A stretch of DNA of 62,240 nt, the filler included, from Platydemus manokwari (Eukaryota): assembly GCA_037951405.1 (NCBI GenBank). It is 5 parts of 5 records of this genome, joined end to end, with 100 filler letters (N's around TTAATTAATTAA, not from the genome) between each part and the next. Parts side by side here need not be neighbours in the genome. Positions count along the whole stretch, not along the records: positions 52,648 to 62,240 come from JBBMOY011227987.1; 4 more parts are not named here. One strand, written 5' to 3'. Of the stretch, positions 6,638-62,240 are shown in pieces. Made by a program: the position numbers and the translations under genes. Position 1 is the stretch's first letter; the number at the start of each line of letters is the position of its first letter. The notes under the pieces were generated by a model, which was given only the letters and a program-made list of their open reading frames with translations, was not told the origin of the DNA and did no database searches.

Positions 6638-7756
6638 TTACAATACCGTTTCTGTTTCATCGTTCAATTTCATTTGTATCTCATCATCCCCGAATTGTTC
6701 ATCAAACTGTTTTTCCATTCTCTTATTTGTCGTTAAACAACGAGACGATGTGATATTGTTTTTGTGACTGGCTTTTGAGATTTGTTGTAAAAGTGCTCCT
6801 CGAAATATTCGATTTGATACAAGATAAATCAATAAGTTCATGCTCGAATCGACATAGATCGAAATGTTGGCCAGAAATGCCAAATGATAATTGACGTCGA
6901 CATTGGAAATGATGTGACTGTTGTGGAATAGTTTCGAAAAGAAAGAGGGCATTTCTAATGTGAAAAATGTAACACATATAGCAACAACGAGTTTGTCAGC
7001 AGCAAACGATTTCTTTTTCTGATTCGGTGTAGTACTGCTTCTTCGAAAGTTTAGGCTTTGACGAATTTTTTGCAACATTAAAACGCTTAAAATATTTACT
7101 GATAGTAAAGGAATTCCAATCTGAATCAAGAATACAAACACATTCAGGTATATTATTCTATATAAATAAATATTGCTTAAGGCTTCTGATATATTGACAA
7201 CGTCTCCAGTTTGTATGCAGTACGTATATGATTGCTCAAACATTCGAGGAAATGCTATCATAATAGCTATACCAACTATTCCAATAAAATAATGATTTAT
7301 ATTCATTGATGTCACATAACGCTTAGTACATAGAGGATAACAAATACATTCAAATCGATGGAAAGCCAATAAGATGATCCATGTATTTCTTGCTATCAGA
7401 AATCCAACCGAAAACAGATAAATGCAACGAAACAATGCATCCATGATTACCGGTGGCACCAATCTTAATGAAATGAGTATTTCGTCTATTTTAAGGAATT
7501 CAACCAAATAAAACAAAAGTAAATTCATTTGAAATACCAGTTCAATGAATGAGAATCTGGCTAAAATTTGATTCATCAATATTGGCATACGCCATAGGTA
7601 TTTGGAAAATATACGCAAAGCAAAGCAATTGGCAAAACTATTTACAAACAACAATACAATGGAAATTAGTTGATATACATCTTGTGAACTTTTGGAAAGG
7701 AATAGACTTGAATTACTATTCCCCGAACAATTATCCACAACTTCAAAGAATTGCAT
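6638..7756 (-). CDS. Intronless class A (rhodopsin-like) GPCR, peptide-receptor-like orphan (FMRFamide-receptor/srw-like, flatworm orphan type)
   Basis: 372-aa ORF with 7 hydrophobic segments and an N-terminal glycosylation site (NCS). TM3 end LAFHRFECICYP is the DRY equivalent, TM6 is VTFFTLEMP, TM7/helix 8 is DSSMNLLIYLVSNRIFR (NPxxY equivalent). Confidence 0.9.
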   Translation of the reverse strand: MQFFEVVDNCSGNSNSSLFLSKSSQDVYQLISIVLLFVNSFANCFALRIFSKYLWRMPILMNQILARFSFIELVFQMNLLLFYLVEFLKIDEILISLRLVPPVIMDALFRCIYLFSVGFLIARNTWIILLAFHRFECICYPLCTKRYVTSMNINHYFIGIVGIAIMIAFPRMFEQSYTYCIQTGDVVNISEALSNIYLYRIIYLNVFVFLIQIGIPLLSVNILSVLMLQKIRQSLNFRRSSTTPNQKKKSFAADKLVVAICVTFFTLEMPSFFSKLFHNSHIISNVDVNYHLAFLANISIYVDSSMNLLIYLVSNRIFRGALLQQISKASHKNNITSSRCLTTNKRMEKQFDEQFGDDEIQMKLNDETETVL

Positions 7757-9879: not shown

Positions 9880-10205
9880 TTCCAACTGTCAGTTGGCCAT
9901 CTTTACATCGATATCTGTATAATTTTTTGTGTCATGTTAAATCATATTTTAATTAGATCTTAGATTTTCCATGTTCCTATTGCATTTTTAAGTTTTTAAC
10001 TGAGTAGGATTGGTCAATCATTATGTGTGTGTTGTTGAGTGGCTATGTCCCTTTTTCCAATTGTCGTTTACCATCTAATTTTACAATGATTCGCTGGTTG
10101 CTACGCCTGTAAGGCTGTGTATGCACGCAAATGTTTGAAGTACTTAAACAAGGGTTACAAGGTGCAAATCTGTTTGTCCTTTCAGCAGAATTTCATCTCA
10201 CTCAA
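9880..10205 (+). repeat. Dispersed repeat family A copy
   Basis: Collinear with 1110-1430 (CAGTTGGCCATCTTTACAT...GGATTGGTCAATCATTATGTGTGT...CCCTTTTTCCAATTGT...CAAGGTGCA). Confidence 0.75.
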
Positions 10206-15309: not shown

Positions 15310-15409
15310 NNNNNNNNNNNNNNNNNNNNNNNNNNNNNNNNNNNNNNNNNNNNTTAATTAATTAANNNNNNNNNNNNNNNNNNNNNNNNNNNNNNNNNNN
15401 NNNNNNNNN
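15310..15409. other. Assembly gap linker
   Basis: 44 N + TTAATTAATTAA (stops in six frames) + 44 N. Confidence 0.99.
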
Positions 15410-17169
15410 AAAAACCTTGATCTATTGGAGTCCAGATAAGTTAAAGATTTTGAAACCCTTATGATTTATTTTAATATCAAGATTGTATCATTAAATATTT
15501 ACAAATTGTACGTTGTTATTTTGAACCTAAATTATAAGTTATAAAACCTTATATAAAATTATCAAATCTTTGACAGTTTTCTTATTTTTTCACATTTACT
15601 TGTTCCATTATTATATTAGCAATTGATCTTTTGACTATAATTGTTCCCATAATAAATATAATTGCATTTTTTCAGTAGGTATTGAAGCCTTTCCACAGTA
15701 ATTCTGCTTCAATAAAGCAATACATCAAAGACACTAGATGAATTTAAATTATATAAAAGCTGACAGTCCTAATTATCTGTGATCCAATGATTTCCATCCG
15801 TCGAACTGCTTACTTTTTTATACGAGATTTAAAATTGTTGTGCCTTTTTGACAACTTATAATAAATTCTTTTGCTATTTTCTCGCAATAGAGGTTATTGA
15901 TTCAGAACTGTTCAGTTTTAAATAACTCATTTATACTAAACTAATTATTTTTTTAGAATTATAACATATTATTAATATTTTAAAACAAATATGGAATCAA
16001 GGTTGAGATTTTAATTATTCGGACATGTTGACCAGTTATACATTCATCATATCAATTATTGAAATCTTTGGATAAGTTGGTAATACTTGAATCACAAAAT
16101 CATTTTATCAGATAATATCACTTCATGAATGAGAGAAATTTGGTTAAAATGCTATTTTGGTTGTCTAAAATCCCATAAATTATTGCAATGCCCATTGCAG
16201 CGGTCGTGACAATAAAACCGATCATTGCAAGACTCAAATTATCCTTGGTAACCATCACATATTCATAAAGAGGCTTAGATATTAAAACGTATTGGGCCAT
16301 CATGACTAGAATGTTGAGGAAAAGTGGTAAAACTATTACCGAGAGAAATGTCAAAATTGATCCGAAATCAACAATTAAGTATAGCATTTCATGTATTGAT
16401 AATAATATTCAATAATATTTATATTAATAATTTGATTTGTATATTAAATAGAGATTTTTAATATCATTGGAAACTAATTTTTTACTCATGAAAGTACTTT
16501 TAAGAAATTCGTATTATTTTGGACGGTTTTAATTTTCAAACAATAATAATATTCTTTGTGGACAGATTTGATTCAAGTTTAATGCGTCGGTATGTCGGTA
16601 AGATTATGAAAGGGTCAGTTTCAATCTATCCTTGACGAAATCTAAACACAATTAGCCAAAGAATACCTCACGAGTCTACTATGGATCAACTATATCGGTA
16701 ATTACTAGAGAACTGGTATAAGTTAATATAAGAAAGAACGCAAAAAATTGATTACGGTTGAGAGCTTCAAGCAAGGTTAAAAGCAATCTTAAACAACTGA
16801 CCAACAATTGCAAACAACAACATTTCAATATGATAATAACTTTAATTGGTGATAATTTTCAATTTTTATCTGTATTTGGTGTATCGAAATCTGTATAAAT
16901 TCATAATATTTTTGTAAACTCTACATCTTTCAATGCATGATATATTTTATGCTAACAAAAAAATGGTTTCATTAAATTCTCGATTCCTAAATAATTAGTT
17001 AGAATTAGTAATGAAAATGCTGGTATTAATACTGTTGAGTGAGTCGAAATCTTGCAAAAGAAAATCGGATTTGCACCTTTGAATCCTTGTTTAATCACTT
17101 TAATCATTAGCATACCTACACAATAATACACGCATGTCGATATACCAATCATAATTGACACAGATAGAA

Positions 17170-17375
17170 AATGATAATTTAAAAAAAAGACATAGTCACA
17201 CAACAAACCCAAATATGAGAATTGACCAATCCCTCACAAACAAAATAAGCTCCATAGAAAAATGAAAAAAAGATCAAATCAAAATGTGATACACAAGTGA
17301 CACGAAAATTGCACACAGATCTCGAGCGTAAATGTCTATATGAAAATGGCCAACTGCCAGTTGGAAGTCAAGGAT
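17170..17375 (-). repeat. Dispersed repeat family A copy (inverted)
   Basis: Contains ATTGACCAATCCC and ATGGCCAACTGCCAGTTG, the reverse complements of family A blocks. Confidence 0.7.
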
Positions 17376-17944: not shown

Positions 17945-18272
17945 TCATATTAATCCGGGATTTATCCTCATGATACAACTATTTCCTATTTTGACACAAT
18001 AAATTTTAAGTAAAATTTAAATGTGTTCGAATCCACTAATGAGAGAATTATGAAAATCCTATTCTGTTAATGATAAAGATTAGAAAACTTATCTATTAGA
18101 ATACTCACTGTAATTATCACCAATGATTATTCTAAAACCTCTCAAAACCTTTAAATCCATTCCACATTTGATTCACATTTTATAAGTTTTTTACATTAAT
18201 ATTTATTATCAAATATCATTTATAGATAAATTCAAAATTATTGATTATCAAATATTATTACGTTAACGTCAA

Positions 18273-19256
18273 ATGAAAGATAATACTCCACCAGGACTGT
18301 ATAAAAAGAACATTAACTATTCCCAATGTAAACAACCGACTTTTGAAATTTACGAGAAAAAGGAATTAGGTAAAAAAGATTGGCTTTTACCGTATCGTAA
18401 AGCATCTTTTCGAGTGACTTCCCACTTTCGATCAAAATCAAAATCGGTACTCATACCAAAATGGATAGACAATTTGCATTTACACTTGGCAGATATTATG
18501 CCTAAATCACCACCATATGTACCAAAATTACTCCAATATTTCGTCAATCGAATTGAATTAGAATTGTCTGAAGGAAAGATTAATATCAATAATTATGTTG
18601 TCAAGATTGATTTTAATCATCCTTCAGTTCTGATAATCAAGAATTATGTTTTTCAGGAAAATAAAGATTTCATAAATATCGATTACTTCAACAACCTTCA
18701 CATATCGTGGATCATAAACATGTTGAAATTAATACTATTTCTTCTTCGAAGTAAACCTCTGATAATTCAAAGAATTCCCTTGCTTAAGATCATTGAACAA
18801 CCATTGTTCGATAAGTATCACCGACCAAATATTAATATCAAACCAAAGTTATCCGATATTTGTATGAAACTAAGCAAATCAGATATGGACACTTTAGGAT
18901 TTTTAATGGTTCATATAATACACTTTTGGAAATACGATTACACACCAACACCAGTGAAAAATCAACTGGCCGATGTTTTCGGATCTTTGTTGATTACATT
19001 TACTATTGAGGATCTTACCACAGACGATTCATCAAAAAGCCCAGAAGCTGCATTATTAGAAGTGATATTGGAAGTGTGTGATTATCATTTTTGGTATAAA
19101 TTAACTCATAATAACATTATATATTTATTTGACAATATAAAAGGAGATAGCTTGCAAAGTAAACCAATAACTGTTGATAGACCAATTCATCTGTCACCAA
19201 TCATTTACTTCACTGGATCGATAACTCAGTCGTATTCAGAGAAAGATGGTAACTAA
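18273..19256 (+). CDS. Intronless RacGAP1/CYK-4-like RhoGAP-domain protein, probably catalytically inactive
   Basis: 327-aa ORF. LADIMPKSPPYVPKLLQYFVNRIE, DTLGFLMVHI, NQLADVFGSLLI and LLEVILEVCDYHFW parallel RacGAP1 [45 protein letters not shown] and VERLLSLPLEYW. The GLYR arginine-finger motif is absent. Confidence 0.75.
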   Translation: MKDNTPPGLYKKNINYSQCKQPTFEIYEKKELGKKDWLLPYRKASFRVTSHFRSKSKSVLIPKWIDNLHLHLADIMPKSPPYVPKLLQYFVNRIELELSEGKININNYVVKIDFNHPSVLIIKNYVFQENKDFINIDYFNNLHISWIINMLKLILFLLRSKPLIIQRIPLLKIIEQPLFDKYHRPNINIKPKLSDICMKLSKSDMDTLGFLMVHIIHFWKYDYTPTPVKNQLADVFGSLLITFTIEDLTTDDSSKSPEAALLEVILEVCDYHFWYKLTHNNIIYLFDNIKGDSLQSKPITVDRPIHLSPIIYFTGSITQSYSEKDGN

Positions 19257-25039: not shown

Positions 25040-25801
25040 TTAACTGTCTGTCACCGGACGTGTATTGACCCATTCAGAAACATCAACATTTGCATGAAGA
25101 ATTCTTTCGCGTAGTTCTTTCAGTTTGGGAAAGTCGTCATACAAAACTGGTAATTTCATCAGGAAATCAGTCATTACAATAAAATACAATTCGGCTAGCG
25201 AAATATTCGGGCCAGAAAAGAATCCAGTTTCTCTGATAAAACTTTCAAGTACCTGAATGAATATGGTCAAAATAATTACATTCTCAGACTTATTGCTTTA
25301 CTTCAAGCAAATTTCTACCAGTGTTATTTACAAACTCATTTCGCAGTTCTTCTTTCTTTTCTTCTGGGACATGGAACGATCTATACATTGCTTCCATAAT
25401 ATCTGTGATCTGCAGATATTTAAATCGAATATTAGAAAAGAAATATATAGATTTATTAACCTGACCAATTGCTCTTTCTATTAAATAATATTCCGCAGAA
25501 TCATTACCCATAAAACCATGTTTTTTAGCCACCATTCGAGCGATTGCCATGCTTTGGGTGAGTTTTTTATCTTCATACTCAACAACAGGCAAAGTTCCAG
25601 TGGGTGTAGTTGGTTTTAGAGCGGGCCAGTCTTCGCGTTTTATTCTCACGTCTTCAAATTCAATTTTACTAGCTTTTAAAACTAGTCGAATAATCTCTGC
25701 CTTTCCTCGTGCATCGAAATAGATTACCTGAACGTTTGTGTACTTTTGGTTAAAACAATGGCGACTGGATAATAATTATATCAAACCTTAATCTTAGACA
25801 T
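25040..25801 (-). CDS. gst: Glutathione S-transferase, sigma class (Schistosoma 28-kDa GST-like), 200 aa. Exons 25801-25787, 25727-25461, 25409-25302, 25252-25040
   Basis: Spliced product MSKIKVIYFDARGKAEIIRLVL...EDVRIKREDWPALKPTTPTGTLPV...QSMAIARMVAKKHGFMG...ISLAELY...FPKLKELRERI...RPVTDS, with the catalytic Tyr. Three GT-AG phase-0 introns of 59, 51 and 49 nt. Confidence 0.95.
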
Positions 25802-34100: not shown

Positions 34101-34919
34101 TTCAAGTAAAAGAAATATTTCCTGGTCACCAAAAACGTTACAAATTGTCGTAATGAATTCGAGATAAAATTTATCTCTATCATTGATGATATTTTTGAAA
34201 CTTTTCTTTATTTTTTTTGGGTGAAAAAACATGTTCGGCATGTGTACAGTTTCCCATCAATTGTTATCGTAAATCAAATATTTCCCCTGTTTGCCCACCA
34301 TTGAAATGTAGCTCCAATATGTGATTAAAAATTATCGATTTGTGTGTATATTTTCGATTTAATCTATTTTTAGAAAATCCGATGTGCTTTGTAATTTTAT
34401 TTTTAATGAAACTGATTTTACTCCTGTTCATATTGATTTGTATTCTCAGATCCAATCGATAGTAAATCAATGATTTTTGCAAATATATCATCATTTTATT
34501 CATTTCCCTCTTTTATTATTATTATTAATGTGAGATGTATACTCGAATGATTTAAACATGTGTTCACACATCTATAAAATTGGATTGAAGTTATAGAAAT
34601 TGATTTGTTTGTTCGAATCTATCAATGAGCGAATTACAAACGATTGGCTCGTTGTTGTATGTGATTGTGACAAAGAAGAAAGCACTCCCCAACAGATCAA
34701 TTTGTAAATACAGGTTGATTAACCCTCACCACTTAATATAAACGGGAAACATTATTAATACATTGGTAAGCCAAATATCGATTTAGTAATTTTATTTTAT
34801 GGATTTATCGAATTTATTATTTATTGGTTGATTTGCTAGCTGTTAATATTTCAATAACTGGGCATTGAAAACGATTTTAGAAATTCAACACCAAAACTAT
34901 ATTAAATCATAATAATTGT

Positions 34920-35560
34920 TAGCCGCTACTATTTGAAAAACCACGCATTAAAAACGAACTGGAGAATCAAGACACCAATGACCTATTTTAATACAAATAT
35001 TCAACAAATAAATTTAATTTTATATAAAATTAGAATTAAAAATTTAACTCATATAAAATATCTCACATCCCCTTTCTTTAAAATCTTTGATTTTGTTCAT
35101 TATCTCTGCATCGAATACTCTAAATGTTTCATTACACGAAAACTCTATTTATTCTCTCTTTTAATGTCTTCTTTTGTATCTCCATTCTATGTTCGTTTTC
35201 ATCTCAATTATATCTCATTTATATCTTCTTTTATATCCCCGTTTTATCTCTTCTACAACTTCTTTATATCTTCTTTATAGATTCTCAATATAGTCTCAGT
35301 ACCTTCCTCCTTCTTTTCTATAATTTTCAATCGTTAATCTTTTCAGACCGAATCTACATGCGTGGTCGCCATGTTGACCGCTACTATTTGAAAAACCACA
35401 CATTAAAAACGAACTGAAAAGTCAAGACACCAATGACCTATTTTAATACAAATATTTTAACAAATAAATTTAATTTTACACAAATATGATTTGTTATAAA
35501 ATAAGAATTAAATTAGAATTAAAAATTTAAAATATCTCGCAATATTAAATCTAATTTATT
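34920..35560 (+). repeat. Dispersed repeat family B copy with ~110-bp direct repeats 455 bp apart
   Basis: CCGCTACTATTTGAAAAACCAC.CATTAAAAACGAACTG...CAAGACACCAATGACCTATTTTAATACAAATATT occurs at 34923 and 35378. Confidence 0.8.
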
Positions 35561-36649
35561 TACGAGTTGAATATCAAAACTTGAAAATCCTCACAATATT
35601 AAAATCAATAATTTTTTGTAATTGATTCAACAATCAGATAAGATTTTGTTTGAGAGAAATTAATCCGTTGCTATGAATACTGGTGGAATATACAACTGGT
35701 AGAGGTCTACATGTTCGCTTAACGGGAAAATTGAAAATTTATTTACAGAATATCGAATTTATTGTTAAAAATCAATACATGAGTGACTGTATATCAAATT
35801 TTGTAGCAATATTTAATTGTAAAATGGCCTCAATTAATAATATATTAGCGTTTTTGATGATTAAAATTTTAATAAATTAAATGAAATTTGTTTTAATGGT
35901 GGTTTTTTTAACGATAGGGTTTGTGTTCGAATCGTTACGATAAACCGGACATCAATTCAGTTTATGAGATATCATCGATTCTAATTCCATCGAGCATTTC
36001 ATAGAAATCTCTGAGAATTTATGCCATTGATTTTTATATCGATTCAATAAAATTGTTCCAACTTCGAAGCTAATGAAATTATTACTGCAACAATTGCAGA
36101 AAAAAAACAATGTTGAATTTTGTCGTCAATTTAATGGTGATGTCCGTGCATTCCATTTTGTTTCAAAAAAAATCTGCAAATTTTGGTAATTATATTGAAT
36201 TAACCATAGCCAGGAAGAAGGCCAGTTTAACAATCTTATGTCAGTCATCGATTATCATTGTATGCACTTTATACAGGATGTGCCAAAAATAATTTTCAAG
36301 CACCCACCGAATTAAGCTATTAAAGCAGGAAACCAATGCAATACTGGCTCCAAAAGTTGTCGGCGCAATTGTGTTTCTAATTAGTGGTTTGATTTGCTCA
36401 GTGCTCAAATTTCAATACATAGTTTTGCTGATACGCTCGGGAGATTCCCCAACAGCAAAAACAACAACAATGATGTATAATAATAATTAAATCTAATGAA
36501 TTCGTGAAAAAATTGTAGCGTTAATGGAAATTTTTCTTGCATCGATACAGTCGAAATCCTATTGGTCAGATTATTAACAAATGAAAATGGCTTTAGTAGA
36601 TTCATAAAATCTAACAATTTTAAATAGCCATTCTTTTTTCATATCAAAG

Positions 36650-36874
36650 ATGAGCAGCCGTCTGTGCACAATGGAAGTTGTTATGACTTTCGTTTTTATT
36701 CTGGTATGGATCACATCGACATTAGCCACGGATCCTTTTGCACGCAACAAACCTTTCTACGAAAATTCGTACATCAATCCCGATCATGTAGTTCTCAGTG
36801 CGGCAGTTTGCAAGGCCAGTTGTTACCACAAATGTCTTCAAATGTACTCCAACAGCACCGAAACCGGCAGTCAG
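36650..36874 (+). CDS. First coding exon of a secreted or membrane cysteine-rich protein
   Basis: Met, a signal-peptide-like segment (VVMTFVFILVWITSTLA/TD), a CKASCYHKC motif and an NST sequon. GC content is elevated. It ends at phase-0 donor CAG|GTTTGA, the same donor hexamer as GST intron 1. Downstream exons were not found. Confidence 0.65.
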
Positions 36875-37930
36875 GTTTGATATTTTAATTTTTTTATACG
36901 GTTATCTGGTTGTTTGATTCATTCTATTATCGATCGTGAATTTCCGGATTCAAATGATGCTCGTTCATCCGGCGTTTTTTTATTTAATTTATGACGAGCG
37001 AGTTTATTTATTTCGACATTGACATGTCGAAATGTATTTTTAAAATCTACATATCAATCGATATTTTATCCAATGTAATAATCGGTCAGTTGAGATCAGC
37101 TACAGTAACCATAGTGATTACGTTCTGTAAATAAGTAGACATTTTTTTAGAAAATTTAAATTTTCAAATCTTTCCTCCTTGGTAACCATTGTAAAATCCA
37201 TGTCCCGTCCAATTTTTGATGGCCATATTTAATTTCGACAATTATTTTCCATAATGAATGTCTTAACCAATATCAGCCAATAATAATCCCAGAGGATTTT
37301 CAATAATTTGCTCAGAACGAAAATTGTTGTCTGATGGAAACATGATGACTAACAGTTTTGCCCATGTCAGTTCTGACATGGTCGAAAAATCATTGATATG
37401 CATCAAACAGAATCGATCCGATTGATTGATGATTAATCGATCGATAATAAACATTCACAGAATTGATAATCAATTCCACAGATGAGCTACTGTCAATAAT
37501 TTTCGAGATCAAAAACAATACATGTTTTCTACTTGTTTGTTTCTGTTCTCTTCTATAGTGAATGATGCGTCATCCTGATGTTCTACTTGTTGTAAGAATA
37601 ATAACGATAATTGGTGTCAATCACAGAATATTGATGACGAATATTGATGGAATAATTAAATAATATTTTAATGAGATATTTTTCCCTCAGATATAGAACG
37701 AGATCATTTGTTGTTGTGGTTCCATCAGTGATGGTTTTATTTTCCGATTGTCATTTAAAGGATTTATATATTTCTTCATTTTATTAAAACGTATTGTTTC
37801 TATAGTTACTTGCTGTGTCGAATATTATTTATCAAATCATTCTACTCAATACATAGCCGCTCAAACATATCGAATTTCAGAGTGACAATGATATTCTCTA
37901 TATATTTTATATTGAGCAGGATTGGAATTA

Positions 37931-41634: not shown

Positions 41635-42155
41635 TGTAAGCCGCCACTATTTTATAAAACATGCATTGAAAACGAAATGAAAAGACACGAAACCATATTG
41701 TGTATTTAAATACCATTGTATAAACAAGTTAATATAATTTTATATAAAATTATATATTTAAAAAATTCAATTCAATTTTAATATTCTCATATCTCCCTTT
41801 CCTTAAAATCTTTGATTTTCTTTGAATTCTTAAGTGACATTGTATCGAATATCACACATTTATCGACATAAAAATCTCTAATTATTCTATTTCTCTATAT
41901 TTTCTTAATATCTTCTTTATATATGTCCTCTGTATAGTCTCAACATTTTGCTCCTTCTTTTCCATAATTTTCAGCCATTGGTCGTCTCAAAATCGAATCC
42001 AGGTGCATGGTTGCCAAGTGAACCGCTATGATTTTATAAAACACGCAATGAAAAATAAACTGAAAAGTCACAACACCAAATTATGTATTTAAATAAATTA
42101 TTATAATTTTACATAAAATTAAATCTTTAAAAATTTAGTTCAATTCAAAATTCTC
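41635..42155 (+). repeat. Dispersed repeat family B copy
   Basis: Collinear with 34920-35560. The CCGC...TTTTATAAAACA.GCA.TGAAAA block is repeated at 41641 and 42023. Confidence 0.75.
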
Positions 42156-43668
42156 ATATAGCCGAAATAAAATTTCCCAATAATTTATTCACACACACAC
42201 ACACACTTATTTTAATAAAATTTTCTTCATAATCATAAATATAATAATAAAAAAGCTCCATCAGCAAAATACTAGAAATAAACAAGTGATATATCGATTT
42301 TAAAGATAAATAAATGATAAATTGAAATTTGTTTTTCATAATTTTAATCCATCATTAATCTTGTAATCGGAAAATTTTATTGATGTCAAAATAACATCTA
42401 TAATCACTAAAAAGCTATGGTTGAAAAAATAAAATAAGCCGTTTATTAGCTATTTCTATATTAGTAAAAAACTGTCTTTAAATCCAGACAACATTGGTGT
42501 AATAAGATACCACCGGATAGTAATGAATAGCAAAGTCATGGTACGTGTCTTGCAACATTGAATGAATAAAGTGCTCAATTGGATAAAAATCAGTTCTTTT
42601 AAACTTCAAATTTTCAAATATTAATAAATGGAGTGGAATTGTTTTTAGTAGTTGTGCGAATAATCCAGTCGTATTTTATCTAGTTATTGATTAATTGAAC
42701 CTAACAGAAAAGTTTAAATTTTAACAGATGAAAGTGGAATAAAATAAATCAGTTCTCTTTTCATAAGTTAAATTTCTAGTTGTCAAAATTATTTTCTTAT
42801 CAAACCGGCTAATAAATTGTAATCTAATACTTCACAAAATCGAGATCTTCATAATACGATCTAAAGACTTAGCGGGAAAAAATCAGTAAAATTCAACATT
42901 TCAATAATTTAAATTGATATTTTCTATTGAAGAATTCAACATCTCAATGATCACAGAAAGAAATATCGATATTTAAATGTTAATTATCAGACGCTATATA
43001 AGACACTACAAAACTGTCTAAGTCTTTTACATACATCATGCTAAAGTATAATTGTGATAACATAAATCAAAAAATATTGCAGAATACTAACAGAAAAAGT
43101 TCAAATTTTGTTTATTCCAATAAAGGCATGTATTATGATAATAATAATAATGAAAATAAGAATAATAAAAAAGAAAAAATACACGAATTCTATGGCAGAG
43201 ACCGTGATTTTTCTTCACGTGTAACACAACCAATAGAAAACATAATTAAATATATTGCTATGAATCCAAAGCTTCGTTAGATGATATGGAATTACAAACT
43301 TGCGTGCGATTTACGATGTTGATATTAATCGTGAATGTAGTCAAACGAAAAAGTAATTAATATGACTACAATTTTTATTTGCTTCTTTTAATATTTAAAA
43401 TGTTCAATTCTTTTTTCCTTTTCTCCTTTTACTTTAAATTATTGCTTTTATTACTATTCCATTGATTATTTAAATTTAGGACATTTTGCAGCGTGTGTAA
43501 ATCCGTAAATCGGTGAAAATAACTGCAGCATATTATGTGATATTTATTCAATTTTTAGACCTTAATATAATTAAAGTCTCAAATAGAAATGAATTTACAC
43601 AGCAAATATAAATCAATAAAGTTTTTCATGAACCAATCAACATAGAAAGTGGGTTTAATAAATAAAAA

Positions 43669-44278
43669 GGCTAAAGTTAAAAAAGGGTCCTAAAATGAAT
43701 TTTGAATTTGTTGAGTGTAGTGCCAAATTCTATACAGTTTATTTAATTATATTCTTTTAAAAAAATTTGAATTTTTTTATTTAAATATTTAAGAAGAATT
43801 TTAGATATTAGAAATCAAATATTAAACACATTTGAACTTAAAAACCTACTTAAATTTGATTATTTGAATAAATGAAAAAAGTAGGTCGAATTGCAATTCA
43901 TTGAAAATTATCGAAGATCCCTTTTTTAACATTAGAAACAAATTGAGATATGTTCTCAATTTTTACAATTATTTTATAAAAATAAGTAATATCAGATCAT
44001 TAAATATACCAGTAATGAATAAACTCGATTTATAATTATAAAAATTTAAATTTAAAAACTCACATAATCACATAGAAGTGTTGCGACTAGAATGGGAACT
44101 TGGTTTTAAAATTATGTTTTGTCCCTATTAATTATCTTAAAAATGAGATATTAACTGAATTATACGAATAAATCAAACATAGCAATTATATATAAAATTA
44201 AGTTAAAAAATTATCTCGCGAGCGAAAATTCATTTTAACAAAAGTCGGTCAAAGGACCCTTTTATCTTAACTTAAGCC
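43669..44278. mobile_element. Non-autonomous TIR DNA element (~610 bp)
   Basis: Imperfect TIRs GGCTAAAGTTAAAAAAGGGTCC / GGACCCTTTTATCTTAACTTAAGCC. The right end is duplicated at 502-640. No clear TSD. Confidence 0.65.
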
Positions 44279-50899: not shown

Positions 50900-52547
50900 T
50901 TATCTAAATCATTGAATTGAAATGATTTTCTATCATTTATCTTGCAATTTTAAAACATTGTTTTAAATATTCAATTTTAGCGCTACTTTACAACATGAAA
51001 ATCCATGATGTTTAATTAATTTTATTAAAAATCAAAAAGTAAAATTCACAGTTTAAATCGATATTTTTACATATTATTTGATTATATTATTCAATATGTA
51101 AATTTATTAATCGATTTAAGAATATCAAATCAATTCGAGCAAATCCCTAATTATTGATGATAGCGAATAAAAATTTAGTCTTTTGACTTTAAATCTATTT
51201 TTAAAAAATATCTCAAACGTCAGTCAATAAATAATTACAAGCGATGAGATATGTTGGATTCACCTATCAGTTAGAGGCTGTTTTGTTATTTGGCATAATT
51301 AACCATAATTTATATTTAATGTCTTGTAACTAAAGCAAATTATCAATACATTTTTGACAAGATTCAAATTGCTAGTAACAAATGATTACAATGACACATG
51401 ATACGATTAATATGGTATCAGGAAAGACCGGAAAATTTTACATAAAACTGTCAATCATAATGGAGAGAAATAAAGTATCATTTTATTAGTAAAAAATGTG
51501 GACACACTAACAAGATATTTTTTTAAAATCCATGTTCAATTTAGACTTATGAAATATCTATAATCAATTTCAACAAGTGTGATTTTATGATCATTTAATT
51601 TACACCATCGATCTCACCCAGGGAAAATAGTGACAGGAAACCAGAATTGATATGAACAGAAATTAATAAAAACTATTTACCATTAAAGAATTATAAACTG
51701 GTTTAAATTATTCACAATAGATTCGCTATTAATTAAAAGTGGATTTTGTCGTCATTCACGCTAGCACTGTCATTTATGTCATCTGTTTTTTGTAAATCAT
51801 CTCTCCTATCTTTTTTCTATCAATCCAACAAATCAAATCCCATCACATTTGCCAATGTTAATAACAAATACTAAAATCGAAATTTATTTCCTGTAGTGAT
51901 ATTTATATTTACTTGAGTTGTAATTTTCGACTTATGTAATATCGAAAATTATTTCCTTATCGTCTTGTTAGGAAAATGTTTTAAATGATCTGAAATACGA
52001 AGTTTAGTTTATTAGCTCGTTTTAGTGAATCGGTTTCACTTACAAAATCAACCTTTCATTTCAAGACTTCTTCGTTGGATGTAAATGTCTTTCATTTGTA
52101 TAGGATTATCGAATTTAACTTGACTTATTTCACACAAGCAATTGTTTTGTAAACTGTGACAGTTCTGGTGTAAATGGTGACAAAATTCATTTTTAATTCA
52201 AAGTGAATCTAAGATATGGCATTGCTTGTATTTATTTTCCGAATAATTTCATTAATTTTGATCAAATATTATTCCATTAATAAAACAAAATCAATTCGAA
52301 AACACATTTGAATGTTATAAATATATAGGCTTAAATTATGTAAAGGGGTAATTTGACCTACTTCATTATAATGAAGGTTCGCACATGAGATAATTTTATA
52401 AGTTACTTTTATATATAACTGCTATGTTTGATTTATTTCAGTTAATATTTCATTTTTAAGATGTCTAATCGTGACAAAACATAGTTTTAAAACCAAGTTC
52501 CCATTCTAATCACAACACTTCTATATGATTATTTGAGTTTTTAAATT

Positions 52548-52647
52548 NNNNNNNNNNNNNNNNNNNNNNNNNNNNNNNNNNNNNNNNNNNNTTAATTAAT
52601 TAANNNNNNNNNNNNNNNNNNNNNNNNNNNNNNNNNNNNNNNNNNNN
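52548..52647. other. Assembly gap linker (truncates env and supplies its false stop codon)
   Basis: N44-TTAATTAATTAA-N44. Confidence 0.99.
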
Positions 52648-54278
52648 CCCACTACTCTAGCGAATGTTCCCTTATCATCAAATATTAACGGGGCTATAAG
52701 TTCCGGATTTGTCACTGCCAACGCTAACTTTGTCTGCAACACTTTCCTCCTTAGTTTACAATCGTTTAACATCATTTCCATATACATTTTCTCTAAATAC
52801 CCTTGGTTGAGATGGTAAAAATAGTCAAGCTTGTTGTTAAAAAACTGAGATAACTTGATATCCAGTTTATCTACCGTTGTCTTAGCATCTTTTATCTCGT
52901 TCGTACTTAAATATATACCTTTATAGTTTGTTGCTATAACCTGCTGTGCACATTTCTTATCTATTCCCTTGTGAACAAACCTCATGGCACTACTCGTCTG
53001 GTCGGCCATGTACACTATTGGTGTTTCTTTCATCCTAATTTCTACTGTCTCTGTTGGTGCATCCAAATTCAGTTCCTTGGAGAACTTAGTTTCTTTGAAC
53101 ATCTTTCCTTTAATTTCTCTAAATTTTGTCTTTTTGAGCAACGTTAATGGGCATTTGTACGGATTATTTTTATACATAATTAACGATTCCCCTGTATCAC
53201 ACGTTGAATTATCATACTCGCAATGCCTCCACGTGGTCATTCTCTTTGTTTTTGCATCAAATATAGCCTGATATTCCCACAATTCTATAATATAATGCCT
53301 ATATGCCACCACGTTTTTTACTTCTTTTCCGTCTATCATGTTGTCTTCTCCCTCACTATTTCCCCCATGACTAGACCATCCTGCTTGATTTACCGTATAT
53401 CGGTTTATTCGTCCTGGAGCCACTATCACTTGTATCCCTTTTGGTATTTGGTAAGTTCCCTTTTCGAATGCGGCTTTGCAACTTTCTACCGAAGGTATTT
53501 CCGGTACTGGCAACCATGCGGGTACCAGTGTTACTGTGTATCCTCCTCTCTTGCATGAACAATGGAAAAGCATTTCTTGATATGCTATCTTCCATTCCCT
53601 TGCTTTTTCAAATAAAAATTCGGATTCCTGATACACATACATTTCCTTTGGTCTCGATTGTGTAATATTCACTGGGTATGTCTCCGGGCATTTTACAATA
53701 TCCAATAGAGAATTTTTTTCCCCCATCGTGCTACAGTCATATCCACTAATTCCAGCATTCACGCCACCTATATTACTTATCACATATATCGCGAATAACG
53801 TCTGCACTATTGTTGCCAATGTAAATCCTGCTCCTCGTACCGTTGTTTCACGCTCTGGCTTTCTCATTCCTTTTAATAACGTGGTAACTACTGGGGTCCA
53901 TCCCCCTAACTCGTTTACCATGTCTTCGTATTCATCAAATATTATTTCTGCTTCTTCGTCAATGTTTATTACACCCTTATCAACGTGATTGCTCAATGTT
54001 CTCAGCGTGAGTGCTATTTTTCCCACTGTTTTTTCTCCTTCATTTAACGACTTCATCACTATTTTAAACTCCTCTTTGTTATTGCACTGTTGCATTTCTT
54101 TTAATGAATTTTTAATTGGTTTTGTTAGCTTACTTAACCTATTCACTTGCTTCCGTTCGTTCCACCTGAGCGTACATGGTAATTTATTTACTGCTCTCAC
54201 ATACTGTCTCATTTTTTCCATTTCTTTGTCTTCTTTTTTTAGGTCTATTTCCTGATGTATGCTGAAAGATTGTTCCAC
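52648..54278 (-). CDS. env: Envelope glycoprotein, chuvirus-G / herpes gB-type (class III fusogen), 3'-truncated
   Basis: A hydrophobic signal (FTLATIVQTLFAIYVISNIGGVNA) is followed from 53753 by GISGYDC...SLLDIVKC...CKAAFEKG...CEYDNSTCD...CPL...KCAQQVIATN...NNKLDY...CKLRRKVL..KLALA..NPE.IA.LI...GTFARVVG. This is the Cys/motif pattern of chuvirus-like glycoproteins (GYDC..SLLD..C; C...L...LA..P.....G..A...GE). Confidence 0.85.
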
Positions 54279-57200
54279 TGGTACTTGGTCTGTTTTCTTC
54301 TATTCTATTTACGGGTATCCTAACCGATTCTGGATTTTTCGCTTTATTTGTTGATCCTACTGGTCTACCACGCCTTTATCTTAGGTTTCTGCATTAGTTT
54401 GCTGTGAAGTATGTGTTTGTTGGCTTTCATTTAATAATTCTGGATCAAGATATTGGAATAGTTCCTCATGATTGTCGTATCTCTCATGATTTTCTTCTTC
54501 TAGCGCTTTTGGCAATTCCTCTTCTTCTTTCCTTGGTGGCTCTATTACCTCTTTTTCTCCATCACTTATTTCCTCTAATATGACGTCCTCCTCTTTTTCT
54601 ATTGTTTTACTACACTCTCCTTCTCTATACAGATATACTATTTTCTTTCTTGACACATTTTCTTGCTCCTTGCTAGTACTGCTTTCTAGCTCCAGTGCCT
54701 CCTTTTGCTCCTCTTTAATTATCTCTTCTCGTGGTTCCGATTTTTCTTATATCCTTTCTTATTTGGACACATATTTCTGCTTTCCTATACATCCTAGACA
54801 TAAGTACTTCTTTTCTATTTCTTTTTGTAGCTGATTCTTTGGCATTCTTTCTATCATATCCCTTCTACTATCTCTTTTCTTCGTTCTCAATCCTAATGCC
54901 TTCAAAAAGTCCTCATTGGAATTTAATTCACTTGATTTAGAGTTTGCTGATTTTGGAGATTTCGCCTCACTACTTTTTGTTACTGGTTTCACTTCTTCTT
55001 CGTCCAAATCCACTCCTATTATTTGATTGGCATTTATATATAATTCCCTTATTTCTTTTTCAACCGGTTCCTTATACTTAATCAGGACTCCTAAATTATT
55101 TAAAATTGCACGGTTTAAATGATATTGTTCTAACAGATCTCTACTTCTCAGTCTTACCCCTTTGTTATAAAGTGTAATACTTAATTTATTGACATGCTCT
55201 CTCATTAGGAAATTTTGTCTAATGTACTCCTTCATTGTTTCCACTACCACGTCTCCTGGGCAACTCATTATGTGATCTTTCTCCTCTGTCCACGGACTTT
55301 CCAATATCTTCAATTTAAACGGGTAACAGTTATAATCCATTCTACCCCTATGTCTTAAATAGACTCGCTTTTCTGATAACTCATAATCCTTTAATTGACT
55401 CCCTTCTACAAATAATTCTTCCCTTCTTTCTCACGTTTTATAATGATACATGAGATATCCATTCTCATTCCTATCTGGCCATAGTTCATCTGCCCAATTT
55501 AATATGAATCGTATTTCTGCCGTTTCCAACATTCTTAAATTTTCCACATGTGGCTGTCCGTGCTGTCTCGCCACTAGATGCAGGTGTATTACTTGCTAAT
55601 TGTTTATTGTTGCAGGTAATTCTCCCCATTTTACATCATGCGTGAATGGTAGTTCTGGAATGGTTGAACTATTGAACGGTCTCCATTTAAAAAACGTTTT
55701 AGCTTTTCGTGTCTCCCATGTTGATCCTTTTCCTTGATGGATCATGACCTCCACAACATTTCGTCTTTTTCTTTTTATTAAATAATGTCTGCATGTTGTG
55801 TCATCTTCAATAAACATACCGCGGTGTATTAGCTCTACCAAGAATGGTTTGAACGTTACAAATGGCCACATTGCCGTTGCCATCTGTCGTTATCTTCGTA
55901 TACTCTCTAATTCACTCCTCATCCAAAAGTCATAAAGTTGTCGTCTCTTTTTCAGGCTTGATTTATCTTTATGTCTTTTCGTCTCAACATCGCTTGTATT
56001 TTTTCCTGTGTTTCTACCGTGATTTTTTCTTCACCTAATATTGATATTATTACCCGCAACTTTTCCATTTCGTCTCTTGCATCTGGCTTCCTGACACACC
56101 TCATCATATTCACTCCCTTAAATTTTTTCTTCCTTCCGCCATTCGCTTTTTTTATAATAATATGCACTATAATGCGCGATTATAGTTAGTTCATTATGCA
56201 TTTTTTGCGTCATCCCTAAATCACTTAATATTACTTCTTCTGTGACTGGTGTTCCCTTATGCCATGTTTCTACTCCGCATTCTGGATTTTCCTCATTAGG
56301 CCAAAATCCAAATGACCATTGCAATATCTCGCTTATACTTGTATCATCATCTATTGTGAGCGACTTTATTGTTGTTCCCCCTTTATTATTTTTTAAATTT
56401 ATTTGCAACGTTAGCTTTCTTTCTTCGTGCGTTAGCTCCTCACAATGGCTTCCTGGATATAATTTGACAATTCCATTTTCTATTATTCCATTTGGATATC
56501 TCTTTGGTTTTTTCATTACCACTTTTCTGTTTATCTGTCCCCGTCTTCCTTGCATGAACATTATTATTTCATCCAAACCCGGTACCCATTCGTCTGTCTA
56601 TCCTGTATATTTATATTTCCATCTCTGCTCCATTAACAATTCCAATTCCGGTACTGTCTCTTTTCCCTTAGTGGTTATCCACTCGTAGTGACTATCCTCT
56701 TCTTCGCTTACCATTTGGAACTCTATTATCACTCTTCCTTCTGCTCTTTTTAAATTATCTCTTCTTCTTTCTATATCATCGAAAGCTACTCCTCCTCTAA
56801 CCGTAATCTTTATTTGTCCCCTATATCCGTATACTGGCTGTGTTCTTATCCTTATTTGCTCTGCTTCCCTTAACACTGGGCATCGTTTAGCTACATCCTT
56901 GTATATCCTATTCATCGAATCATTCAGATTTATTTTCACATAAATTTGTGTCTTAACTCCATATCTATCTTCTACCAGAATTGCCAATTCGTATTCTCCT
57001 TCTTCTACGTTTCTTCTGGGCTCTTCTTTGTCATCCATTTTATCATATATTCCTTTACTTTCTAATATTTTCATCATCAGCTGTTCTGCCCATACTTTTT
57101 TTTCTAAATAGTTTGTTTCCATGGTATTTGCCCATTCCGGGTATGTGACTACAACTGTATCTCTTCCTTGTGGTATTGGTAATCTTTTGCATGTTCCTAT

Positions 57201-59001
57201 TATTTCTCCTTTTTCTTCCTCTTTATTCATTCCTATCATCGACTCTTCCATTATTATCTTGCTTCCTGTTGCTGTTAACTGAATTAATGAGTATCCTGCT
57301 TTCTTTCCCAGTTTCTTAACTCCTACTAAACTCTGAAATTCAAGAGCATTATTTTTTCTGAAAAACGGCATCCCTATTCTCAGTTTCTCTTCCTGTGTTA
57401 ATAATCTTTTCAATCGGATTATTACGCTTGATGGTTCTAATTCACCTTCTCGTATGTAATCTTCTGCACATTCCACTATTCTCCATACTTGAGGATCGAA
57501 ATTTCCTTCTCTTCTTTCTCTAATTCTCTTTTCACTTGATGTTTCATTCATTAATTCCCTAAATATATCTATCAACGTCTGTACATTAATGTGATCCCTA
57601 TTATCCTGTGTTAACTTCATCCACAGGCCATCTTTATCTTCCTGTGGCAACTGTTTCCATATCCTATCCATTTTTTCATCGATATTTCCATATCCCTTTT
57701 CACATCTTCGTAGCTTTTCTACAAGCTCGTCCATGGCTTGATAATCAATTTCCCTATCAACTAAATATTGTCCTGCATATCCAACATCCCTATTGCCTGT
57801 AGCGTGTCCTTGCATTGTTACCATTTTCGATGGGACGTATACTGGTGATGTTGCTGACACATTTAAAACCTTTGGCACTATTCTTTCAATTATAGGCATT
57901 GTTAGAGCTGGTTTTACTGGAATATTGTACAATATGAGCGCTACTGCTACTTTGTATTGCTTTTTCCTTATTATCTTCTTGAACCTGCTTTTCTTGTATC
58001 TTTATCATCCCGTCTTCCTCCTTTCTATCCTGCGATTCATCAATTACCCGTTCGTGATTTCACATGCTATATTTTACTGGTCTTCCTTTCTCCTCTGTGA
58101 CATCCACTGATTGGACATCTTGTTTTTCTTCCCTTATCTCATTAACTTCCTCTAATGAACTAACTTCTTCCATATCTGATTCTGCTTCTGTCTCCAATTT
58201 GGTGCTATTTTCATCCGCTGTCGCCTTGTTTGACACCTCTTCACCTTCTTTTTCCACTAATTGGTCTCCTGTTTCTGCCAGCTTAAACTCTTCCTTATTT
58301 ATGTTAACATTCTCCCAAAATTGCTCATATAAGGGTATTCCCGTTATTTGACTTAACGTGTAGTTCATAAACCTTATAAACCTCACATTAATTTTATCCT
58401 TGTCTCTTTGTGTTAAACTTTTCCATGATGTATTATATTTTTCTATCTCAACATATTTTACCCAGAATTGTCTATATTTCTTTATCTGCCCCACTAATTT
58501 GTCATTATCTACCTCATACCATAAATCACTACCATCTCTTCTAACAAAGATTTCCCATGACGGTTTATAGGTTTTACTGCCGGCATCATCATCGGGCTTA
58601 CAACCAGCGTCATAATGGGTTTCCATAATAAACAACTCATCCATCGAATTCAACTTCAATTCTTTTACTGTGGGCATATTTTCTAATATTTCTTTTACTA
58701 ACTCCTTTTCTTCTTGATCACCTTTCTGCTTCATCGCCTCCATTTCTTGCTCGCTATTAATCATACATATGTTGAGAGCTTCATCTTCCTCCCCATAAAA
58801 TGTTTCTTGTCCTGGCTTCAAATTGTTTACCGACGGTTTCAGCATTGGCTTGGTGTGAATTATTGCGTACATATTATCTGGCTCATACTGTGAAAAACCT
58901 TGATCTATTATATATGCATTATCTGGTAATTCATCAAACTTGAAGAATATTGCCATTTTTTCCACTATCCTATTCTTCTCTTTTTCCATATACTGTGTCA
59001 C
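54279..59001 (-). pseudogene. Retroelement accessory polyprotein region: orphan domains, possible inactive protease-like segment, four ubiquitin-like domains, AT-hook
   Basis: ORFs 58060-59001, 56598-57932, 56118-56576, 55952-56167, 55596-55883, 54759-55340 and 54381-54656 join through one or two in-frame stops or single frameshifts. No RT (Y/FxDD in context), RNase H or integrase motifs were recognised. Confidence 0.7.
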
Positions 59002-59639
59002 TAATTTCCGTATTTTCCTAACCTTTTCTACCTATTGTATCGCTTTATCTGTTTTCTTTATTATTGTCAACGGTTTGTTCTCCTTATTTTTCTTCTTATT
59101 GAAATTTTCGTACTCCGTGTTCATACATACTACCTTTGACTCTACCACTTCCGCTAATCGTGTTGCTAATTTTTTTCTTAATGTTTTCACATCATTATGT
59201 GCCACCGCTTCTATGGCTTTTTGAGATCCCTGTGGACTGTTCTGCCTTTGTCTACACGTGGTTATTGCATGTCCAAATTTATTACAATATTCACACTGGA
59301 TTCTTCCATTGCTATTCACCCTATCTCTTCCATAATTACTGTATTTTGTTTGATTATTGTCATAATTTCTTCTGTTATATCTTTCTGCTGATTGACTTCT
59401 GGGTCTATTACCCCTTTGCATTTCATTATTATTATTAGAATTATTATAATTGCCTCTATAATTTCTTCCTTGGTCATCAAAATTTCGATTAAATTGTGAA
59501 TAGTTATCATTATTATTATTTCCCCTGTAAACACAATTATTCGATGAGCTTCTGCTCCTATTATCATTATTATTCCTATTTGGACATCCATTTCTATCAC
59601 CATTATATCTATTGTCACTATATCTTTGTTCATTTCGCC

Positions 59640-59655
59640 TATAATAATAATAATA

Positions 59656-59708
<53 letters not shown>
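59640..59708. repeat. AAT/TAT microsatellite inside gag (poly-Asn, poly-Tyr)
   Basis: Trinucleotide run, in frame with gag. Confidence 0.95.
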
Positions 59709-59709
<1 letters not shown>

Positions 59710-60503
59710 CCTTCGGTATATATTGTCATTATACCCCCGATCATTTTGTCGATAGCTACTATAATTATTATTCCTATTATTATCCCGACTCCTCGCGTAT
59801 TCATTATTAACGTTCCACTTTAGGCTACTTTGAAATTGCGTTAAAATTCTACTTAATTCGGACCATTTTACATTCAAATCAGGGTCCTTTTCATCCTCCT
59901 TTGTCACTCTTTGACTTGACTTGGGCGGCGGGCTCAATCGCTCCGGTTCCGCAAACGTTACAGCATTCACTACAGGGAAACTCATCCCACAGTATTAAAT
60001 CCTCTATTGTTGCACATTCCGCTATTGCTAGTATGCTCTTGAACGCACTATTGATTCCTCGTTTAAATTGATCCATAATTATTCTTCTTCTTCCTTCTTT
60101 TGTAATCAATGTATCATCATACGCTTTTTCAGCCAACCTAGTTAATTCCATGGCATATTCTTGCGTTCCTTCTCCTGAACGCTGATACCGATCCAAAAAT
60201 TGTCTGGCATAATATTCATGAAGATCCGAATCCAATACTATCCGTTTTCTTAATCCCTTAATTATATCCTTAAAAATTACTTCACTCCTCTGTAAATTTT
60301 TATCTGTCTGCATCATATTTTGTTGCTCTTGGAGGGCATAGCCCTTTAAATATAGCGGCAACCGCATTACTTTATTATTATTAATCCATCTATGAGCCGT
60401 AGCAATACACTCGAACTCCTCAAAAAATCGTCAAATAGCTCTTGCCGACCCTCAAATGGGGTTATAGACAAATAAATTAATTTACCGAACTCGTTGTCCG
60501 CCA

Positions 60504-60530
60504 TATTATTATTATCATTATTATTATTAC

Positions 60531-60579
<49 letters not shown>
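60504..60579. repeat. AAT microsatellite inside gag N-terminus (poly-Asn)
   Basis: Trinucleotide run, in frame with gag. Confidence 0.95.
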
Positions 60580-60580
<1 letters not shown>

Positions 60581-61417
60581 TCGTTACTCATCTCTTCGTC
60601 CCTATGTATCTCTATATCACTATCTATTATTGTTTTTTCCAAGCTCGAATCACTATTTTCCTTAGAATTTGAACTACTATCTCCTGATTTTATCGTATGC
60701 TCACTTATATCACCACTTATTTCTTTCAAACTATCCGTTGATTCACTATTTTTCTCCTTTACTAACGATTGGCTTCTTGATAAGCTTCTAGTCATTCTTC
60801 GAGTTCCTCGTGACTCTTTTATTATCTTCGCTGTTTCACCTATGAAATCCTTTTTTCTCGACAGTTTGAATATATAGTTGTTTTACAATATATCAAAAAT
60901 ATGCACTATTATATATATTGTTGGGGTTTATAAGTGTTATTATCGATCTCTGATCTTTTCCAACTTATGTTTTTATTTGTTTTTTAAACACCTGACTCCA
61001 AAGGTGCTGTGTAACTATGCTTTGAAAACAACCGAGTTTGTTAAAGATATATTTAAATAATAATTATAATCTGTATAAATACTTAGTTACAATTTTTATG
61101 AATAAAACAAGTTTAATAAATTATGACAAATAACCAGGTTTGGCTTAGGGGTTCTTAATTTACGATTAATTATAATTCGAAGACTTTATTGACTCTATGC
61201 AGATAGAGCTTGTAGTTTTAGAGGTGGTCTCTTAGGTTTCCCAGTAAGAGCCCTAAAGTTTCTAATTTATTAGAGGTTAGGCCTACGTGGAACCGCAACC
61301 TCTTAGACTAGATTTGTTGGTTATTTAGAGTTTAATAAATTTAGTCTCTAGATGAACTGGGTTCAGTCTAGAGCAAATGTGTAATTAGGATAGAATAATT
61401 GTCAAACTGTTAATTTG

Positions 61418-61426
61418 GGGCCACCA
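61418..61426 (-). promoter_or_regulatory. Candidate primer-binding site (tRNA-Ile-like)
   Basis: Minus strand TGGTGGCCC is complementary to a tRNA 3' end ...GGGCCACCA and lies about 620 nt upstream of gag. It is not directly preceded by the canonical LTR-terminal CA. Confidence 0.5.
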
Positions 61427-62240
61427 GAACAACAGAATAGAGTTGTTGGTTGAAGTTAAGTTGTATTAAGCTGTTGATACGATGCACTGTAAAATAAACT
61501 CCAGAATAAACTAAATTAATTAGTAGACAAATTCACTGATATTAAATATGCAATCAAATAATTCTTTAACGTAGATACGTATACAAATTCAAAGTTAACT
61601 TATAAAAAGAATATGTACTCTAGTTCAAAGTTAATTTATAAAAGATTACTGAACAATAAAAATATTACTGAACAATAAGGCTTCCTATTTTCCTTTTTTC
61701 TTTAAGTTTTTAGAAAGCAGTTTTCTTGATATTATTGAAAAGAATTATTATCGGAGCTGAAAATGCTTGGAGTTGATCACGGACTATTTTTGGAGATGAT
61801 GAAAGAACAATTCGGAGTTGAAAAGTTTTATTTCTTTTCTTCTTTTTCTTAGGGTTTTTATATCAGTTTTATAGATTGATATTAGATAATTTATTTCCTC
61901 CGTAAATAGCAGCTTGTTGTCAGTAATTATCTTTTTGGTAATTGAAACGGTTCGCTTTAACCACAAAATTGTTGATACAAGATAATAGTTTGACAGCTGC
62001 TTTCCAGTAATTATCGATTTCCTCTTAATCAGAGTTTGGCTTGGATTTGTTAAAGATTCGTTGTCGTTATTATCAACTAGTATATTAGAAAAATTGTGCT
62101 TTTTATACTTTTTCTTTTATTAATTTATTTCTTTGTGGTTTATTTTTATTGTTTCTTATTTCTATTTTTAATAAAAAAACTCATTGTTATGATTTTTAGT
62201 GGGGGTCTATTAATACCGCAAAGTAATTTGATTTTGAAAT

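Follow-up and report, generated by a model that had tools for sequence, protein, structure and literature searches.

A giant planarian Burro-like Ty3/gypsy LTR retrotransposon of the GAG-ENV-POL type, decayed and represented by its 5′ half, most probably lies on the minus strand between position 52,648 and about 61,000, at an estimated probability of about 0.88. The window, meaning the whole 62,240-nucleotide stretch of Platydemus manokwari DNA that was analysed, displays gag with a CCHC knuckle, an accessory region with a ubiquitin/SUMO-like domain, a Bcl-2-like domain, a signal helix, and a class III envelope (env) domain in this order; the env has a class III fold, and the copy is decayed. 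Past the env, the same polyprotein would have continued with a TM anchor, followed by protease, reverse transcriptase (RT), RNase H, and integrase (IN). The gypsy assignment rests on the gag and the relatives, because the window holds neither pol nor a 3′ LTR nor a target-site duplication. The original prediction placed a chuvirus/gB-type envelope at 52,648 to 53,830; these coordinates are right for the env, but the feature itself is the tail of an element reaching about 61,000 or beyond. The parts of the element and the adjoining spacer are as follows.

60,890-61,750, minus strand: presumed 5′ LTR and leader, with approximate boundaries, from composition and a shift in GC skew at about 61 kb.
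59,032-60,882, minus strand: gag, from tblastn with relatives, the CCHC motif, and reading frames.
60,427-59,993, minus strand: capsid-like region within gag, followed by an Asn/Arg-rich linker.
59,295-59,254, minus strand: single CCHC knuckle of gag, from the motif position.
58,030-59,031, minus strand: accessory region 1 in the frame of the gag end, of no assigned family, with stops at 59,034 and 58,062.
54,300-58,001, minus strand: accessory region 2 in the env frame, with 12 in-frame stops.
56,178-56,423, minus strand: ubiquitin/SUMO-like domain, moderately supported, from the ESM Atlas and a profile of relatives.
53,870-54,200, minus strand: Bcl-2-like domain (BH1/BH2 region, GGW at 53,906), moderately supported, from the Pfam matches of relatives, a profile, and a model.
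53,756-53,834, minus strand: internal signal sequence or signal-anchor helix of the env, from hydropathy and alignment with relatives.
52,648-53,755, minus strand: N-terminal ~60% of the class III gB/chuvirus-type env ectodomain, from Pfam, relatives, and a model.
52,548-52,647, no strand: spacer, identical to three others and composed of 44 N + TTAATTAATTAA + 44 N.

AT-rich animal DNA with a GC content of about 25% makes up the window. Between 52,648 and about 61,000, GC is higher, at 32-39%, and strongly skewed to one side. A TGG motif at about 61,000 is like a primer-binding site (PBS), and is presumably similar to a tRNA-Leu PBS. Only one end of the element is present, and a second LTR copy was not found in the window; a search for tRNA genes also found none. 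The gag changes frame twice, near 60,430 and 59,994. It has no Pfam gag match alone, and its tblastn matches are to the N-termini of the relatives P0007, P0008, and P0021 (E 7e-11 to 4e-7). These are gypsy polyproteins and not BEL/Pao-type ones, and together with the CCHC knuckle they bear out the predicted pairing of a gypsy-type gag with the env.

Approximately 5 kb of accessory sequence lies between gag and env. From 58,001 to 52,650 the env frame has 12 stops in 1,784 codons, where about 144 would be expected and the other two frames contain 210 and 149; two further stops and three frame changes are located from there to the start of gag. Therefore, gag, accessory region, and env were once a single reading frame that is now decaying. 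The env has no free ORF of its own and is, within the window, the final domain of a single decayed polyprotein; its in-frame placement behind ubiquitin-like and Bcl-2-like domains was absent from the original prediction. With 14 stops and three frame changes ahead of the env, the copy cannot make an intact polyprotein. Reassignment of a stop codon was ruled out, as all three stop types are present.

An env-bearing ORF of 550 codons on the minus strand, from 54,299 to 52,650, is stop-free and runs into the spacer at 52,548-52,647. About 40% of the ectodomain and its anchor are missing from the sequence, beyond this spacer, and the rest of the env, pol, and the 3′ LTR lie outside the window. The four identical 100-base spacers start at 15,310, 27,967, 37,931, and 52,548, and gap sizes and adjacency across them are nominal. 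The pol domains of 13 relatives had no tblastn match anywhere in the window. Absence of pol throughout the window would suit a non-autonomous gag-accessory-env derivative whose family never had pol and was mobilised in trans, but this is unlikely, since the spacer cuts the frame in the middle of the env and the relatives carry pol exactly there.

A full scan with the env gave 100 proteins at E 0.001 or better, the best being long polyproteins. When 22 of these 100 matches were scanned for domains, PF24664 was present in 21; gag, protease, or RT domains occurred in the same chain in 12, the env stood ahead of the protease in 11, RT-RNaseH-IN followed in the same chain in four, and a BEL-type domain was found in none. 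The relative P0008 has the order CCHC, weak ubiquitin, weak Bcl-2, and env, and P0101 (4,844 aa) has ankyrin repeats. Word-index homolog searches with the env, at longer and near lengths, gave none, and a metagenome locus scan returned 31 pattern matches, of which 0 were confirmed. As further observations on the relatives, P0001, P0004, and P0101 carry aspartic-protease-like domains in tandem, three to seven of them, in the stretch from env to RT, and the chain of several relatives closes, past the integrase, with one more module that is hydrophobic and possibly luminal. The deposit of P0006, a full env-pol polyprotein of a retroelement, under a Flavobacteriaceae MAG is likely bin contamination.

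In a quick midpoint-rooted env tree of 50 of the 100 matches (the other 50 were dropped for profile coverage below 70%), which holds no named virus, the window lies inside a 21-row set with an SH-aLRT of 98, together with all 13 polyprotein-labelled rows and seven short fragments. P0005 and P0013 are labelled polyprotein in this tree and have no retroelement Pfam match. Stand-alone glycoproteins fall apart from the set. The best relatives are gag-env-PR-RT-RNaseH-IN polyproteins and the env groups with them; therefore, pol of the Burro-like element probably lay beyond the spacer.

A class III fusion ectodomain of the chuvirus/gB type is encoded on the minus strand from 53,834 to 52,650, and the region matches PF24664 (Monjiviricetes_fusion) with E 3.1e-24 and a score of 85 bits, the cut-off being 27. 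The 550-codon ORF has a single hydrophobic peak, the signal-like helix that begins at 53,834, which aligns with the hydrophobic segments preceding the YDC motif in relatives. Hydropathy of this ORF gave no TM anchor ahead of the spacer, and no furin site was found in the env. A phmmer search of the env against PDB sequences gave 0 matches, and the env profile search reached gB at E 0.06 only.

The cysteine skeleton was compared with 18 of the 100 matches (the 12 best with full coverage and six remote ones). Eleven alignment columns are Cys in every relative with a residue there, 10 of them in 18/18 and one in 17/18 with a gap, and the present copy keeps 9/11. A tryptophan replaces the conserved Cys in AREWKI (codon at 53,594) and a serine does so in GGNSEG (codon at 53,357). 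An extra Cys at 53,555 sits in a two-residue insertion that occurs in 0/18 relatives. By analogy with rhabdovirus G, the two lost Cys are presumed to belong to different disulfides of the fusion domain, and for this reason their loss would fit decay and not a swapped bridge. Both substitutions had been predicted as signs of a decaying copy, and the 14 stops and 3 frame changes agree with such decay.

The env was modelled with AlphaFold2 on a 55-row alignment of relatives, which pulls the model, and pLDDT is mostly above 90 per block. All PDB matches listed by Foldseek were herpes gB (best E 3.5e-8, ~10% identity), and the best BFVD match was a chu-like virus G (E 5e-23). VIA ranked HSV gB first (Z 10.0, rmsd 6.2, 290 aligned), followed by rhabdovirus G and then thogotovirus GP. 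The model has the gB-like elongated beta fusion domain, PH-like domain, and long central helix. Its TM-score to gB is low at ~0.33, owing to 160 additional residues in the model and to the missing C-terminal 40%. Taken together, sequence and model identify the env as a predicted class III fusogen of the gB/chuvirus type. The structural comparison proposed with the original prediction, against herpes gB and chuvirus G, thus found similarity to both with Foldseek, and to gB with VIA, in line with the predicted class (PF24664 E 3.1e-24; gB E 3.5e-8; chu-like G E 5e-23). The outcome named beforehand as refuting that class, a lack of profile or structural likeness to class III fusogens, did not occur.

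The best BFVD rows (chu-like, xinmo-like, and qin-like G proteins at 14-18% identity) would suit a reading in which a gypsy element captured a chuvirus-like glycoprotein independently and specifically in planarians, or in which a chuvirus inserted into such an element. This is very unlikely: the best retroelement envs are 33-38% identical to the env, compared with only 14-18% for chu-like G, the env is in frame with the accessory region, and it groups with gag-env-pol polyproteins. Moreover, an ancient acquisition is argued for in the text of PMC13524379. The original prediction left the choice between an independent capture and an old lineage; the former is unsupported because the env groups with these polyproteins (SH-aLRT 98) and not apart, and the latter agrees with the view published there.

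The Bcl-2-like domain comprises the 110 residues directly ahead of the env signal helix. The window's own stretch is too diverged for a Pfam match alone, and the ESM Atlas gave no usable match for it. However, the corresponding stretches of relatives match PF00452 in 4/4 cases, and a five-row profile of the stretch matches Bcl-xL at E 2.4e-4; the four-relative profile scores the window's stretch at E 0.44 only. A fold was built on an alignment of relatives, which pulls the model; in VIA its top 27 rows were all of the Bcl-2 fold (best Z 8.7, rmsd 3.4, 116 aligned), and its Foldseek rows were nearly all of the Bcl-2 family but at E 0.5 or worse, which is not significant. A first fold contained no formed Bcl-2 domain (pLDDT 30-56), and its VIA search gave generic helices there.

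The ubiquitin/SUMO-like (Ubl) stretch at 56,423-56,178 has ESM Atlas feature matches to PF00240 / PF11976 (0.90-0.91, recognition 2923) and no Pfam HMM match. A profile of three relatives matches it at 4.3 bits, and 1/300 shuffles scored higher. Its use as a cleavage signal for host proteases was ruled out, as it lacks a C-terminal GG. Two further stretches that looked ubiquitin-like by eye, 55,328-55,083 and 56,993-56,760, were dropped for want of a Pfam or profile match.

In the window and four diverged relatives, the Bcl-2-like domain lies 52-82 residues ahead of the YDC motif of the env, and other relatives have no detected Bcl-2 domain. The env signal helix therefore occupies the position of the tail anchor of cellular Bcl-2 proteins. 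It is a tentative idea, with the odds against it, that the helix serves twice, translocating the env and, once cleaved, staying behind as the membrane anchor of a Bcl-2 mimic, which would protect the cell that expresses it. The Ubl-Bcl-2-env series may be an old module reaching beyond dugesiid planarians, because it occurs in metagenome-derived relatives only 28-38% identical in the env.

The same region was weighed as a domesticated host gene, in which the Bcl-2-like domain and the env were kept in one 550-codon ORF after the element died. The Bcl-2-like domain has a Met ahead of it at 54,221, and none of the 550 codons of 54,299-52,650 is a stop. The 1,234 codons upstream contain 12 stops, a rate at which about 5 would be expected in the open run. 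This run is notable, but it was observed once and may stem from recombination among copies that differ in age; two otherwise invariant Cys are lost, and the stretch belongs to a multi-copy family. Domestication is accordingly regarded as highly improbable, and a decayed retrotransposon is preferred. On 52,648-59,300, 1,105 contigs of one public run covered 30/30 bins, a figure that is not a copy number and comes from a single run that may be the source sample. By identity, 125 contigs are at 99% or more, 265 at 95-99%, 437 at 90-95%, and 278 below 90%, and transitions account for 442/562 changed places among them. The stretch, accessory region included, is a multi-copy repeat family of mixed age.

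A single-exon rhodopsin-type GPCR at 6,641-7,756 on the minus strand is 77% identical to GCR049 of Schmidtea mediterranea, and the host is therefore a planarian, as predicted, and one other than S. mediterranea. The host genes are separated from the element by fixed spacers, and this call assumes that the joined pieces come from one genome. Elsewhere in the window, a Sigma/28-kDa-type glutathione S-transferase (GST) with at least two exons lies at 25,043-25,775 (minus), and its exon best matches 28-kDa GSTs, which we take to be schistosome proteins. A 329-codon open frame of no assigned family is located at 18,267-19,253 (plus), hydrophobic exons at 16,121-17,233 (minus) possibly encode a multi-pass membrane protein, and a Cys-rich exon at 36,608-36,885 (plus) presumably resembles the anosmin/KAL1 N-terminus. 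Short dispersed AT-rich repeats unrelated to the element occur in both orientations at 52,366-52,547 and 44,049-44,238, and further ones at 501-626, 1,115-1,377, 9,880-10,132, 34,917-35,476, and 41,636-42,158.

An intact element would make one long polyprotein threaded twice through the ER membrane, placing the env in the lumen and keeping gag, the accessory domains, and pol on the cytosolic side. This chain would be cut by signal peptidase and by the protease of the element, and the capsid would assemble or bud at internal membranes. The env trimer would then fuse with a neighbouring cell by the class III mechanism, which would spread the element between cells. The Bcl-2-like and ubiquitin-like cargo would most likely blunt apoptosis or protein quality control in expressing cells. 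The pol, topology, and function described here are inferred.

The present copy is dead and incomplete, and extends an already described kind of element by one more case from planarians. It combines in a single element the gB-type env class and the Ubl/Bcl-2 cargo, each known from a different paper, and diverged relatives carry the Ubl/Bcl-2/env module as well. Should the Bcl-2-like domain function as a membrane-anchored inhibitor of apoptosis, a retrotransposon would use host control in the style of DNA viruses, and would do so in an animal that relies on stem cells and cell turnover to regenerate.

Jingchuviral/Monjiviricetes G proteins and herpes gB have the class III fold and cysteine skeleton in common with the env. 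In contrast, they are free viral genes and the env here is a polyprotein domain, with structural-alignment identities of 14-18% to viral G and ~10% to herpes gB. Chuvirus-like glycoproteins are also known from mosquito BEL/Pao elements (Dezordi 2020, as cited in PMC13524379), in which an LTR element carries the same glycoprotein Pfam family. BEL/Pao is another superfamily, whereas the gag here and the pol of the relatives are of the Ty3/gypsy type and the env precedes pol.

GAG-ENV-POL errantiviruses with a gB-type env are described from Platyhelminthes, Nematoda, and Bryozoa by Chary and Hayashi (eLife, PMC13524379), who argue for an ancient acquisition of this env. Supplementary file 1 of that paper lists nine flatworm elements (six from Schmidtea, two from Prostheceraeus, and one from Macrostomum), and flatworm cysteine-bridge classes are given as C1a or C2b. 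These elements likewise have a gB-type env after gag, with the ectodomain behind a signal/TM segment and no need for a furin site. They are intact as described there, whereas the present copy is broken and ends at a spacer. The words ‘Bcl’, ‘ubiquitin’, and ‘accessory’ do not occur in the main text of PMC13524379.

Burro and GYPSM1 are giant gypsy-like LTR elements of dugesiid planarians (PMC6431247, citing Grohme 2018 and Jurka 2007). In the Burro description, gag with CCHC is followed by Ubi2/SUMO-like and BCL2-like domains and then an in-frame env before the protease; this env matches glycoproteins of negative-strand RNA viruses, and decaying copies with stops and frameshifts occur in Dugesia japonica (PMC6431247). 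BURRO1 becomes de-repressed after smedwi-2-type knockdown (PMC8532177). An env of this type between gag and pol in flatworms had thus been published in both papers (PMC6431247, PMC13524379), and is not the surprise that the original prediction took it for. Further papers on Bcl-2 or chuvirus-like env in flatworm elements were not found in the literature outside subscription journals. The present element resembles Burro in its planarian host, gag-CCHC, long accessory region, and order of Ubi2/SUMO-like, BCL2-like, and in-frame env domains, and the ~2,300 codons ahead of the env fit the Burro ORF of 4,900-5,100 aa. On the other hand, Burro has two or three CCHC knuckles and one was found here, and the MATH, BIR, Smc, and ankyrin motifs of Burro had no Pfam match in the decayed visible half. 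Burro exceeds 30 kb in total length, and the element here is incomplete. Since it is set beside Burro by published description and not by sequence, strict Burro membership is left aside, and the element is best filed as a Burro-like GAG-ENV-POL errantivirus.
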